Of a stretch of DNA of 64,000 bases, positions 37,807 through 42,032 are shown in pieces. A model generated the notes under the pieces. It was not told the origin of the DNA, made no database searches, and was given only the letters and a program-made list of their open reading frames with translations. The stretch lies in assembly GCF_017348835.2 (NCBI RefSeq), contig NZ_CP071375.1, one strand, 5' to 3'. The first letter of the stretch is position 1. Every line of letters begins with the position of its first letter. The stretch comes from Escherichia coli. Lineage in GTDB: Bacteria; Pseudomonadota; Gammaproteobacteria; Enterobacterales; Enterobacteriaceae. The translations under genes were made by a program, and so were the position numbers.

Positions 37807-38652
37807 ATGTCCACGACATGGTTTGTAGGAGCCGACTGGCTCGCCGAACATATTGATGACCCGGAAATTCAGATTATCGATGCCCGCATGGCGTCGCCTG
37901 GACAGGAAGATCGTAACGTTGCTCAGGAGTATCTGAATGGACATATTCCCGGCGCAGTGTTTTTTGATATCGAAGCGCTTTCTGATCACACTTCCCCGCT
38001 TCCGCACATGCTGCCGCGCCCGGAAACGTTCGCCGTGGCGATGCGTGAATTAGGCGTTAACCAGGATAAGCACCTGATTGTCTATGACGAAGGTAATCTT
38101 TTCTCAGCCCCACGAGCATGGTGGATGCTGCGCACCTTTGGTGTAGAGAAAGTGTCGATTCTGGGGGGTGGACTTGCAGGCTGGCAGCGCGATGATCTTT
38201 TGTTAGAAGAAGGTGCAGTAGAGCTGCCGGAAGGAGAGTTTAACGCCGCGTTTAATCCTGAAGCAGTGGTGAAAGTAACCGATGTGTTATTGGCAAGCCA
38301 TGAAAATACGGCGCAAATTATTGATGCCCGCCCGGCTGCACGTTTTAACGCAGAAGTTGATGAACCTCGCCCAGGTTTACGTCGCGGACATATTCCCGGT
38401 GCATTGAACGTTCCGTGGACGGAACTGGTGCGCGAAGGCGAACTAAAAACGACCGATGAACTGGATGCGATATTTTTTGGTCGCGGCGTCAGCTACGACA
38501 AACCAATTATCGTCAGCTGCGGCTCTGGTGTAACGGCAGCCGTGGTTTTGTTAGCACTCGCGACGCTGGATGTGCCAAACGTGAAACTGTACGACGGCGC
38601 ATGGAGTGAATGGGGCGCGCGGGCAGATTTACCGGTTGAGCCAGTGAAATAA
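37807..38652 (+). CDS. sseA: 3-mercaptopyruvate sulfurtransferase (tandem rhodanese domains)
   Basis: ORF track 37648..38652; start trimmed to MSTTWFVGADWLAEH (281 aa) with GGAG Shine-Dalgarno; active-site CGSGVTA. Confidence 0.9.
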   Translation: MSTTWFVGADWLAEHIDDPEIQIIDARMASPGQEDRNVAQEYLNGHIPGAVFFDIEALSDHTSPLPHMLPRPETFAVAMRELGVNQDKHLIVYDEGNLFSAPRAWWMLRTFGVEKVSILGGGLAGWQRDDLLLEEGAVELPEGEFNAAFNPEAVVKVTDVLLASHENTAQIIDARPAARFNAEVDEPRPGLRRGHIPGALNVPWTELVREGELKTTDELDAIFFGRGVSYDKPIIVSCGSGVTAAVVLLALATLDVPNVKLYDGAWSEWGARADLPVEPVK

Positions 38653-38667
38653 GTATTTTACAGGCAA

Positions 38668-38698
38668 TAAAAAACCGCCGAATTTGGCGGTTTTTTAT
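38668..38698 (+). terminator. Bidirectional rho-independent terminator after sseA
   Basis: aaaaaaccgccgaatttggcggtttttt: hairpin flanked by an A-run and a T-run, usable from either strand. Confidence 0.7.
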
Positions 38699-38994
38699 TG
38701 CTGGTCTGGTTCGCGGCCTTTCCAGCAGGTTGACTTGTGTTGCCGGAGCAACGCAGGCACCCCACAGTGTTGAAATACTCTCTTTTATGCCTGGCTGTGT
38801 CAAGATAATAAACAGAGTAATTATTCAAACATGAGAGTATTATTCTTAATGGCCCTTTTCGCCGTCTCGCAAACGGGCGATGGCTTTAGGAAAGGATGTT
38901 CCATGACCGTAAATACAGGCACCCCACAGTGCTTGCTATCGCGGCAATATCGCCAGTGGTGCTGTCGTGATGCGGTCTTCGCATGGACCGCACA

Positions 38995-39120
38995 ATGAAG
39001 ATACGGTGCTTCTGTATCGTACTTATTGTTTCTGGTGCGCTGTTAACCGAGGTAAATAATAACCTGAGTCTCTCCGGCGACAATTTACTGGTGGTTAACA
39101 ACCTTCAGAGCAGCAAGTAA
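38995..39120 (+). CDS. Small hydrophobic protein, candidate type I toxin (RyfA/TimP-like), copy 1
   Basis: 41-codon ORF MKIRCFCIVLIVSGALLTEVNNNLSLSGDNLLVVNNLQSSK followed directly by a terminator; an in-frame ATG 12 nt upstream is an alternative start. Confidence 0.45.
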   Translation: MKIRCFCIVLIVSGALLTEVNNNLSLSGDNLLVVNNLQSSK

Positions 39121-39152
39121 GCCCGAATGCCGCCCTTTGGGGCGGCATATTT
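39121..39152 (+). terminator. Rho-independent terminator of toxin transcript 1
   Basis: gcccgaatgccgccctttggggcggcat followed by attttag. Confidence 0.5.
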
Positions 39153-39156
39153 TAGA

Positions 39157-39237
39157 TTATCCGATTCTGTTTAAAGTCACGCAAAAAACCACCCCAGCGA
39201 CGTTCATAGAATGGCGCAATATGTTCGATATTAAAAT
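39157..39237 (-). pseudogene. Duplicated 3' fragment of sseB (about 26 codons)
   Basis: Minus-strand translation ...IEHIAPFYERRWGGFLRDFKQNRI* matches the SseB C-terminus; homology to 39830..39907 stops abruptly at 39237. Confidence 0.55.
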
Positions 39238-39351
39238 GACCTGGCTTATTAGTCCGAATTCAGACAAATATAAACAAATCCCGCTCAATATTAAAAATAC
39301 TAACCGGTAAAAGATATTACTTAAACATGTAAATTCACTTTCTTTAAGCAA

Positions 39352-39907
39352 CAAAAAACCGCCAAAATCAGGCGGTTATTTGTTGCCGGTTTGGTTCGCG
39401 GCCTCTCCAGCAGGTTGTATTACCGTAGTAATGCAAGCGCGTCTCAGCGGAGACAATACTCGCCAGTAACTCTCTTTTTGTCAAGTAAAAGAGAGTTATT
39501 ATTGTTCTGTTAGTGTATTATCCACTGCGGCCCTTTCCGCCGTCTCGCAAGCGGGCGCTGGCTTAAGGAAAGGATGTTCCGCGACCGTTAGAGCAAGCGC
39601 GTCTCAGCGCTTGCTATCGCGGCAATATCGCCAGTGGTGCTGTCGTGATGCGGTCTTCGCATGGACCGCACAATGAAGATACGGTGCTTCTGTATCGTAC
39701 TTATTGTTTCTGGTGCGCTGTTAACCGAGGTAAATAATAACCTGAGTCTCTCCGGAAACAATTTACTGGTGGTTAACAACCTTCAGAACAGCAGGTAAGC
39801 CCGAATGCCGCCCTTTGGGGCGGCATATTTTAGATTATCCGGTTCTGTTTAAAGTCACGCAAAAAACCACCCCAGCGACGTTCATAGAACGGCGCAATAT
39901 GTTCGGT
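39352..39907. repeat. Tandem repeat unit 2 of the ryfA-type small-toxin locus (approx. 556 bp)
   Basis: Begins with a terminator-like hairpin aaaaaaccgccaaaatcaggcgg and runs into the real sseB 3' end. Confidence 0.7.
39673..39798 (+). CDS. Small hydrophobic protein, candidate type I toxin (RyfA/TimP-like), copy 2
   Basis: 41-codon ORF MKIRCFCIVLIVSGALLTEVNNNLSLSGNNLLVVNNLQNSR; three substitutions relative to copy 1. Confidence 0.45.
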   Translation: MKIRCFCIVLIVSGALLTEVNNNLSLSGNNLLVVNNLQNSR

Positions 39908-40606
39908 AATAAAGTGGCTAATTCCTTTTTCCCCTTTTTTCACCTGACAAATATCGATTGGTTCATCGCCAGGTAATGTATCGGTCGCTACACTTCCCGC
40001 CACCTGAATAATTTCTTCGATATCACCATCGGCTTCAATGCCAATAAGTAAATTAGGCTGTGCCTCTTCATTCTCTTTAATTGAACAAATAAAAGCACGC
40101 TTCACAGGCTTAATGGTTTTAAATAAGGTGGTGAGTGAATCAATCATTTGTGCTGGCGGCTCTGCGACTTCCGATAATATCAGCGATTCACCGCCTTCCA
40201 GGATTTCCTGGCTGCTCAGCGGATTTCCCTCTTCACCAATCAACAAACTGATTTCACGCGGCATAAATTCTTTACCGGTCGGCAGTTTGGCATTAAGGAA
40301 GAGCGTTTCGCCAAGGGTCATCTCAAACAATGTGCGAACGGGCATTACGACAAATGCCTGTTCGTCTTCAACCGCCTGTTGAAGTGCTTCTAACGAGGTA
40401 AAAAAAGGAATGACGCTGGTGCCGTCTTCTTTTTCCCAGTGCTGTAAATCAAGCGCGCCATCTTCAACCACAGCCTCGCCCTGCGCCGCCGTACCAGGCA
40501 CCCAGACGGTGGATTCCAGTAGAGTACGGAAAAAGGCCGGGCGGTGCGCCGGTTCGGTTGCTGCTTTTTCCAGCAGGTCTTCAAGTTCATTTTTTGTTTC
40601 GGACAT
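39830..40606 (-). CDS. sseB: Enhanced serine sensitivity protein SseB
   Basis: ORF track 39830..40615; start trimmed to MSETKNELEDLLEKAATEPAHRPAFF (258 aa). Confidence 0.88.
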   Translation of the reverse strand: MSETKNELEDLLEKAATEPAHRPAFFRTLLESTVWVPGTAAQGEAVVEDGALDLQHWEKEDGTSVIPFFTSLEALQQAVEDEQAFVVMPVRTLFEMTLGETLFLNAKLPTGKEFMPREISLLIGEEGNPLSSQEILEGGESLILSEVAEPPAQMIDSLTTLFKTIKPVKRAFICSIKENEEAQPNLLIGIEADGDIEEIIQVAGSVATDTLPGDEPIDICQVKKGEKGISHFITEHIAPFYERRWGGFLRDFKQNRII

Positions 40607-40640
40607 AAGAACCACAATTCATTCAACGTTCGGGGCACAA

Positions 40641-40745
<105 letters not shown>

Positions 40746-40748
40746 AGT

Positions 40749-42032
40749 TTACGCCGTTAACAGATTAGCAATCGTGCGCACACCAAGTCCCGTAGCACCC
40801 GCAGACCACTGTTCAACCGGCGCTTTACGGTAAGTCGCCGAGCAGTCGATATGCAGCCAGCCTTGCTGATAGTTCTCAACAAAGTGCGACAGGAAGCCCG
40901 CCGCCGTGCTCGCGCCTGCCGGATACGCCGCGCTTCCGGTATTGTTCAGTTCGGCAAAGTTAGACGGCAGCTGGCTGCGGTGGAACTCCGCCAGCGGCAG
41001 ACGCCAGAATGGTTCGTTCTCTTGTGAGGCACTCGCCAGCAAACGACCGGCAAGCGCATCGTCAAAACTGAACAACGCGTGATAATCATTACCCAGCGCA
41101 GTTTTCGCCGCCCCGGTGAGGGTCGCCGCATCAATGATCAGTTCCGGTTTCTGCGCACTGGCATCAATCAGACCATCGGCCAGCACCAGACGCCCTTCGG
41201 CATCAGTGTTCATCACTTCAACTTTTTTACCGTTGCGATAGGTGATGATATCGCCCAGCTTGAACGCATTGCCGCTAATCAGGTTATCCGCACAGCAGAG
41301 GAACAGCTTCACGCGCTTGTTCAGTCCGCGCGTAATGGCAAATGCCAGCGCCCCGGTAACCGTTGCCGCGCCGCCCATGTCCGACTTCATCGAGTCCATA
41401 AACGCAGTCTGTTTGATGCTGTAGCCGCCGGAGTCAAAAGTGATACCTTTACCTACCAGGCACGCGTACACTGGCGCTTCTTTATCGCCAGTTGGATTGT
41501 AATCCAGCGCCAGCAATACCGGAGAACGTTCTGAACCGCGTCCGACGGTGTGCAGCCCCATATAACCTTGCTCACGCAGATCTTCGCCTTTGGTGATCCG
41601 ATAAGTCACACGATCGCCTGCGACGTTGCTGATCAGATCAACAGCACGCTGTGCCAGTTGCGATGGCCCCAGCTCTTCCGCCGGTGCGTTGATGGTGTCA
41701 CGCACCCAGTCGATGATCATCAGGCGGTTATCCAGTTCCTGGCGCTGGGCATCGTCCAGATCCGGCCACTCCACTTTACGCGTGCCTTTCGGGGCTTTGT
41801 AACCTTGCCAGAATGCCCAGCAGCGATCCGCATCCCAGCCTTCACCGCTTAACTGAACATGCTTGATGCCCAGGCCGTCAATCTTGCGCGCCGCACGCTG
41901 GATCAGCCCCAGATCGTCTGCCCCGTTCAAATGCAGGGTAATGCCGTCATTATTAATGCTGTAAGTTGCTTTTTCTCCCCAGCGCGCGTCGGCAGGTTGG
42001 GTAGAGAGGGTAATCTTCATCGCTTCTGTCAT
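40749..42032 (-). CDS. pepB: Peptidase B (M17 leucyl aminopeptidase family)
   Basis: ORF track 40749..42119; start trimmed to [22 protein letters not shown] (427 aa). Confidence 0.93.

Follow-up and report, generated by a model that had tools for sequence, protein, structure and literature searches.

The ryfA gene produces the mRNA of a small toxic membrane protein, TimP, which is repressed by a divergently encoded sRNA, named TimR (PMC7667032) or, in Shigella, RyfB (PMC5333039). The same module has been described as timP/TimR in Salmonella (Andresen et al. 2020, PMC7667032) and, in Shigella dysenteriae, in the form of the tandem 'sibling' genes ryfA1 and ryfA2, accompanied by RyfB1 and RyfB2 (Fris et al. 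2017, PMC5333039). The two S. dysenteriae genes lie between sseA and sseB, and each ryfA has its own divergently encoded sRNA, ~100 nt long, in which a 5-nt 'variable region' falls within the pairing site of 16-18 nt.

A further RNA, IS128, has been assigned to the same locus in E. coli K-12, where it was reportedly predicted by Chen et al. in 2002 as a candidate sRNA, from promoter and terminator signals. In a study of 27 genomes, IS128 was listed among the variable sRNAs and was missing from phylogroups B2+D, E and B1; an ancestral IS128 followed by three losses was inferred (PMC3318445).

The DNA analyzed here is a stretch of 64,000 nucleotides from E. coli, referred to as the window. It includes the yfhM–sseA–sseB–pepB region and shares the S. 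dysenteriae arrangement, with two tandem ryfA/timP–TimR units placed between sseA and sseB (Table 1). Both genes match the ryfA family RF00126, and each has its own divergent, complementary TimR-like region, as is typical of a tandem timP/TimR sibling locus. Unit 1 begins at 38664, where homology to the sequence from 39348 onward starts; at the latter position, where the homology of unit 2 resumes, GCAAC corresponds to the GCAAT at 38664. The repeat unit is ~684 bp long and present in two copies, and a repeat finder returned repeat families spaced 678-685 bp. The two units differ by ~7% in ryfA and by 20-25% in the TimR part. Unit 1 ends with a fragment of the 3' end of sseB, here called sseB′, and is separated from unit 2 by 112 nt of unrelated sequence, here called the filler. 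The offset between sseB′ (39152) and sseB (39830) is 678 bp, equal to the offset of the ryfA copies, the two being in register. The stretch composed of sseB′ and filler is most probably a seam between two tandem timP/TimR units, left by a single duplication through illegitimate recombination and having no function of its own.

Table 1. Features of the sseA–sseB region. Positions refer to the window, except in the last row, where they refer to the K-12 record (L001). The rightmost column reports the supporting evidence or a remark.
Feature	Position	Strand	Evidence or remark
sseA (3-mercaptopyruvate sulfurtransferase)	37807-38652	+	ORF ending at 38652; left flank of the array
Bidirectional terminator hairpin, common to sseA and TimR1	38664-38701		Inverted repeat, 19-nt arms, 95% complementary
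TimR1 (RyfB1-type antitoxin sRNA), unit 1	38669-38769, ends approximate	-	Position homologous to K-12 timR b4811
ryfA1/timP1 mRNA	38849-39153	+	Rfam RF00126, 317 bits, full length
timP1 ORF; ryfA1 terminator	38995-39120; 39127-39148	+	Terminator scan; timP annotated at the same place in PE164
sseB′ fragment, dead, right end of unit 1	39152-39235	-	Alignment and translation; PGAP partial pseudogene
Filler, 112 nt, core of Rfam IS128	39236-39347		29% G+C; no similarity to sseA, sseB or either unit
TimR2 terminator hairpin	39357-39377		Terminator scan, both strands; homologous to 38664-38701
TimR2, unit 2	39352-39450, ends approximate	-	17-nt exact match to ryfA2
ryfA2/timP2 mRNA	39527-39831	+	Rfam RF00126, 311 bits, full length
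timP2 ORF; ryfA2 terminator	39673-39798; 39805-39826	+	Terminator scan
Intact sseB, parent of sseB′	39830-40606	-	ORF; 777-bp sseB, same position in PE164, K-12 and O157
K-12 (L001) segments compared for pairing	1357-1456; 1681-1779; 1856-1997

On the left flank of the array, sseA is 99-100% identical to the annotated sseA of K-12, O157 and PE164, and the region 38600-39950 (1,351 bp) is found 100% identical in E. coli PE164. The TimR2 terminator, which forms both the left end of unit 2 and the 3' end of the IS128 model, has a good T-tail on the minus strand and a weaker one on the plus strand, according to the terminator scan. Farther to the right, REP-like palindromic repeats are located between sseB and pepB (40640-40770); they give sub-threshold Rfam matches to naRNA4, ES036 and mir-944 and look like ordinary intergenic REP elements.

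The variable regions of the ryfA copies were labelled α (CACCC), β (CGCGT) and γ (TGTTT), and match variable regions reported by Fris et al. The window carries CACCC in copy 1 and CGCGT in copy 2, both among the published types, whereas of the two types reported for S. dysenteriae one is TGTTT. Within unit 1, a 16-nt exact match, CAGGCACCCCACAGTG, is shared by the TimR1 region (38754-38769) and the ryfA1 5' UTR (38916-38931); within unit 2, the TimR2 region (39433-39449) and the ryfA2 5' UTR (39593-39609) share an exact match of 17 nt, GCAAGCGCGTCTCAGCG. The predicted duplex of TimR1 is of -46.7 kcal/mol with ryfA1 versus -38.3 with ryfA2, that of TimR2 of -51.1 kcal/mol with ryfA2 versus -31.7 with ryfA1, i.e. 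cognate duplexes are predicted to be 8-19 kcal/mol more stable than crossed ones. Since the exact 16-17-nt matches are unit-specific, the two toxin/antitoxin pairs appear to be mutually orthogonal.

Tandem repetition is also seen in the type I toxin-antitoxin loci ldr/rdl, ibs/sib and zor/orz of E. coli. These have in common with the present locus a small hydrophobic toxin ORF and a short repressor RNA, arranged in adjacent, diverged copies with copy-specific pairing. The sseA–sseB array differs from them in two respects: the repeat boundary falls inside a flanking housekeeping gene and carries filler, and the copy number is polymorphic within the species, most strains having lost one toxin copy.

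Alignment of positions 39154-39238 to the 3' end of the real sseB (39832-39916) reveals only 5-6 mismatches, and comparison of sseB′ to real sseB copies gives 79-82 identical bases out of ~85 (blastn E 1e-31 to 1e-43). The reverse strand of the fragment reads ...HFNIEHIAPFYERRWGGFLRDFKQNRII before the stop, while the C-terminus of the real SseB is ...HFITEHIAPFYERRWGGFLRDFKQNRII. The fragment is made up of the stop codon (39152-39154) and the last 27 codons of sseB, ending at 39235, and homology ends at 39235-39237. In IMT16316, sseB′ equals the resident sseB at 82/82 bases and divergence follows immediately, which defines a sharp breakpoint; the window allele carries three extra substitutions near the joint (39228, 39231, 39238). 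Identity to the end of the adjacent gene, the abrupt breakpoint and the absence of a start codon qualify sseB′ as a partial pseudogene, and an 87-bp 'incomplete; partial' sseB pseudogene is annotated by PGAP in Combat11I9, IMT16316 and PE164.

A preliminary description of the region, made from the window alone, had reported an abruptly ending sseB 3' fragment at the end of unit 1, and the alignments bear this out. Its coordinates hold to within 2-5 bases: the fragment starts at 39152, with the stop codon, not at 39157, contains 27 codons, not 26, and its peptide ends in NRII, not NRI, before the stop. The spacer that follows was correctly described as AT-rich and devoid of other matches in the window, but it extends over 112 nt (39236-39347) instead of 114 bp (39238-39351), the last 4 nt being part of unit 2. 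The wording 'extra toxin copy', used there for the copy adjoining the fragment, finds no support: sseB′ sits on the sseA-proximal copy simply as the right end of the duplicated segment, and which of the two copies is 'extra' cannot be told.

The G+C content of the filler is 29%, compared to 52% for the window. Its best match elsewhere in the 64-kb window is 12-15 nt long (E ≥ 0.3), which corresponds to chance level. Gapped local alignment, on both strands, to the sseA 3' end, to the next part of sseB and to both units produced scores within the range of shuffled sequences; the possibility that the filler is decayed sseA, sseB or unit sequence was rejected on these grounds. No inverted repeats bracket 39236-39347. 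Sensitive blastn searches returned, from 72,556 plasmids, only chance fragments and one 4.9-Mb record, evidently a chromosome filed as a plasmid, and, from 50,697 phages, only chance matches with 21-36% coverage; an exact-pattern scan of IMG/VR gave 0 matches. With these searches empty, a plasmid or phage origin was rejected, and the idea that the spacer is a remnant of a donor context, to be sought in such databases, found no support, as no homologue was found outside the locus. Eighty enterobacterial sseB loci, from GTDB species representatives, do not contain the filler at E ≤ 1e-3, nor at E ≤ 5, and a pattern scan of metagenome contigs detected 8 matches, all at the sseA–sseB locus. The donor, if any, is outside the collections searched. 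The filler itself counts against simple unequal exchange, which should leave a joint without extra sequence.

The distribution of the array was evaluated in a census of 5,426 complete E. coli genomes. The filler is present in 2,241 genomes (41%), at one chromosomal place each, always at the sseA–sseB locus and never on plasmids. No weaker paralogues were detected at E ≤ 0.01, and an origin of the filler elsewhere in E. coli was rejected, as the sensitive search matched this locus only. The exact sseB′–filler junction of the window, searched as a 50-mer, occurs in 45 complete genomes and one metagenome contig, and the IMT16316-type junction in 90 genomes; an intact junction is therefore found in at least 135 genomes. 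The junction of a 357-bp deletion, first seen in K-12, in which ryfA1 and most of sseB′ are lost, is much more abundant (1,688 genomes), while a larger deletion is attributed to ~390 genomes, whose filler shows the 90-95% identity that is typical of MS1050-type loci. The ryfA core occupies 172 places beyond one per genome, which sets the two-copy genomes at ~3%. A single unit without filler or fragment is found in ~59% of the genomes, e.g. O157:H7.

Single units without filler are also found in the outgroups E. whittamii, Escherichia lineage L005, Salmonella arizonae and S. diarizonae, whereas the Citrobacter loci inspected contain neither filler nor a ryfA match; the E. albertii contig (L006) stops ~74 bp beyond sseB, too early for the filler to be assessed. 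In the comparison to single-ryfA strains, suggested in the preliminary description as a way to define the breakpoints, true single-unit genomes (O157:H7, E. whittamii, L005, Salmonella) are without both fragment and filler. The L005 record (NZ_JAATUR010000003.1) is labelled E. coli SCPM-O-B-8794; its sseA and pepB are 90% and 92% identical to those of the window, about as distant as E. whittamii, and by sequence it probably belongs to another Escherichia species-level lineage. In E. whittamii (L007, 3255-3432) a 178-bp insert, unrelated to the filler, separates the ryfA terminator from the sseB stop codon; from the appearance of its sequence, it presumably contains an ERIC/IRU-type repeat. In E. 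coli Combat11I9 (L002, 360-1328) an IS903B element interrupts ryfA1 at about position 177 of an otherwise window-like, two-unit locus; the first toxin copy can thus be inactivated in this way as well.

The relationship between the seam and IS128 is clarified by the K-12 locus. The Rfam model of IS128 RNA, RF00125, matches the window at 39185-39395 (+), between the two ryfA genes, with 227.2 bits over model positions 1-209, above the gathering score of 80 bits. The spacer, initially treated as unknown sequence, is thus the core of a named RNA family. The corresponding match in K-12 scores 261.3 bits (NC_000913, 2653515-2653723), while no RF00125 match is found in O157. In the window, filler and TimR2 terminator account for model positions ~48-209; the first ~47 positions are aligned to sseB′ with marked non-standard pairs, so that homology does not extend over the whole model. 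True homology begins at ~39222, and the 5' part of the model corresponds to the K-12 deletion joint.

Compared to the window, K-12 has a 357-bp deletion of 38865-39221. Its sseA is followed by the unit-1 terminator, TimR (b4811), the promoter of ryfA1 and the 14 nt with which this gene begins, up to the deletion joint; beyond the joint lie the final 14 nt of sseB′ (TGTTCGGTAATAAA) and the filler, and then the terminator and TimR-like region of unit 2, ryfA/timP and sseB. As K-12 retains unit-1 remnants along with the filler, its locus is a two-unit locus with a 357-bp deletion, and is secondarily single-copy. The occurrence of spacer and sseB-like fragment, in the same arrangement, in single-copy strains had been indicated beforehand as a refutation; 1,688 K-12-type genomes with a single ryfA do carry the spacer, but since they also keep the unit-1 remnants they are deleted two-unit loci, and they confirm the duplication rather than refute it. 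The MS1050-type deletion, found in MS1050 and CNREC, removes ~38823-39227 and leaves filler and unit 2 in place. The locus of E. coli P276M (L088, 1510-3119), where ryfA is truncated after ~170 nt and the annotation of sseB reports a frameshift and an internal stop, was considered as an older form of the scar, its filler being 87% identical; this was rejected, as it proved to be a further-decayed K-12-type locus.

The K-12 IS128 match spans exactly the ryfA1 promoter, the deletion joint, the filler and the terminator, and IS128 of K-12 looks like the fossil of a deleted ryfA1/timP unit. Locus, strand and full-length match are common to K-12 and the window, but the 5' end of the K-12 element is an orphan ryfA1 promoter with 14 nt of ryfA1 joined to the sseB′ tail, whereas in the window the promoter serves an intact ryfA1 that has a terminator of its own, and a discrete IS128 transcript would not be expected. 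The fossil reading, not found in the literature searched on ryfA/timP and IS128, is one modest new point. In the same literature the genes are described, while junction, sseB fragment and filler as such are not; sseB′ and filler themselves are already in public annotation, as a PGAP pseudogene and as RF00125, which was seeded on K-12.

The same seam is flanked by different allele types in different genomes. Their order is α then β in the window, β then γ in IMT16316, and α then γ in Combat11I9 and in the metagenome contig L096. The association of one joint and one filler with differing flanking types points to a single founding event, with homologous exchange or gene conversion later on. Gene conversion is also indicated by the sequence of sseB′, which matches the resident sseB exactly in IMT16316 and L096, though the two lineages differ mutually. 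Because of this later allele exchange, the present divergence of the units cannot date or source the founding event. The ryfA of K-12, of the TGTTT type, is predicted to pair with the annotated TimR of the unit-1 relic at -49.7 kcal/mol, with one G·U in the 16-bp core, and more weakly, at -40.5 kcal/mol, with the adjacent unit-2 TimR-like sequence, of the CGCGT type; the same deletion is present in the metagenome contig L091, where unit 2 is nevertheless matched. On these grounds, the loss of copy 1 in K-12 seems to have been followed by a change of toxin allele.

Among the haplotypes fetched, the filler differs by only 0-8%. The metagenome contig L092 (OLSJ01000109.1, 4121-5353), which has an MS1050-type deletion, carries a filler 97.9% identical to that of the window, although its sseA and sseB are only 89.8% and 94.5% identical; recombination has apparently carried the array region from one diverged Escherichia lineage to another. 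The near-uniformity of the filler, L092 included, could mean constraint, inter-lineage transfer being an equally good reading.

The seam is probably accounted for by one illegitimate recombination event, which, in the ancestor of a large part of E. coli, would have duplicated the whole sseA–sseB intergenic unit, i.e. terminator, TimR and ryfA/timP with its terminator. The left breakpoint would be located ~10 nt past the sseA stop codon and the right one 27 codons inside sseB, because the tail of the ryfA terminator overlaps the sseB stop codon, and ~112 nt of unrelated AT-rich filler would have been captured at the joint. Afterwards the array would have mostly decayed, by the 357-bp (K-12 type) or the larger (MS1050 type) deletion, either of which takes ryfA1 and most or all of sseB′ and spares filler and unit 2; decay by deletion is shown by genome comparison, in the K-12 and MS1050 alignments. 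A single origin is suggested by the shared junction sequence, and the direction of the change, a gain within E. coli rather than an ancestral state with many losses, by a few outgroups; against this direction stands the ancestral presence of IS128 proposed in the 27-genome study (PMC3318445).

An alternative, which we regard as unlikely, is that unit 2 was acquired horizontally from a diverged Escherichia, the filler being donor sequence originally located to the left of its unit, in agreement with the donor context of the preliminary description. An incoming segment, consisting of an unspecified left part, filler, terminator, TimR, ryfA and sseB, would have been integrated on the right by homologous exchange in sseB and on the left by illegitimate recombination within the tail of the resident sseB. 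The window units do differ (ryfA ~93% identical, TimR region 72-80%) beyond typical within-species alleles; unit 2 resembles the single E. whittamii unit (ryfA 95.4%, upstream 88%) more than it does unit 1, while unit 1 is nearest to O157 and another Escherichia lineage. The one seam with three allele combinations, however, implies that unit divergence reflects later exchange, and tells little on the founding event. The low G+C content of the filler looks foreign, and other left contexts exist, as Salmonella has STM2534 between sseA and timR (PMC7667032), but the searches did not reveal a donor: they detected no filler in the 80 enterobacterial sseB loci, including those of E. whittamii, L005, Citrobacter and Salmonella, nor in phages, plasmids, viral contigs and other places in the 5,426 E. 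coli genomes.

For the K-12-type scar it may be imagined, as a quite unlikely possibility, that the unit-1 relic is retained as the cell depends on the orphan antitoxin TimR, the toxin mRNA being complementary to the distant TimR, across the scar, and not to the adjacent one; the relic, including IS128 and filler, would be transcribed from the orphan ryfA1 promoter, and the filler, with its unusually well-folding minus strand, may also belong to a real RNA.

That the filler is itself functional, as a plus-strand IS128 sRNA, as a minus-strand structured RNA downstream of TimR2, or as an insulator between the convergent transcripts of ryfA1 and TimR2, appears very unlikely. The match to a curated Rfam family, at 227 bits in the window and 261 in K-12, would speak for an sRNA, but RF00125 positions ~1-47 are the K-12 deletion joint and only filler and terminator are homologous in the window; moreover, from the strong ryfA1 terminator (39127-39148) to the filler the promoter/terminator scan detected no promoter on the plus strand, and in a screen IS128 overexpression was without effect on biofilm, motility and fimbriae (PMC4606813). 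On the plus strand the filler folds no better than shuffled sequences. The minus strand is predicted to fold at -25.2 kcal/mol, compared to -16.7 ± 2.9 kcal/mol in shuffled sequences (z = -3.0, 0/200 shuffles as stable), and a promoter-like site is present on this strand, at 39294-39267. One pair of an AT hairpin is changed on both sides with pairing kept (UA to AU in K-12 and L093), but this sole double change belongs to an AT palindrome, a setting in which templated mutation may look like covariation, and among six alleles five sequence-by-pair cells are broken, each in a different one of the 33 predicted pairs. All 2,241 genomes with any part of the scar have kept the filler, through two independent deletions; these may spare it only for the adjacency of unit 2 and its TimR terminator, and the filler is missing from 59% of E. 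coli genomes and all outgroups. Coding potential was also considered and discarded, as the only long reading frame, a 65-aa ORF on the minus strand (39157-39354), crosses sseB′ in a different frame and is interrupted in K-12 by an indel of 1 nt. No good evidence for a function of the seam emerges, and it is inferred to have none.

Replication slippage, or an assembly artefact of a repeated locus, would produce two similar head-to-tail units but can practically be discarded, as the ~684-bp units are diverged, include part of a flanking gene and are interrupted by 112 nt of non-repeat sequence, at variance with the uninterrupted short copies of a slippage-type tandem repeat, and the arrangement recurs unchanged in 45 independent complete genomes, with a variant in 90 more and further instances in metagenome contigs. 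The same features uphold the earlier proposal that the duplication took along a piece of sseB and arose by recombination, not slippage.

Beyond bookkeeping, in terms of annotation, strain history and experimental design, the seam matters little. The fossil reading would explain IS128, for two decades a K-12 'sRNA of unknown function', and also why it is present in some strains and not in others. K-12, like about one in three sequenced E. coli, has become single-copy for the TimP toxin secondarily. In work on RyfA and TimR in K-12-type strains, it should be considered that the annotated TimR and the toxin gene derive from different repeat units.
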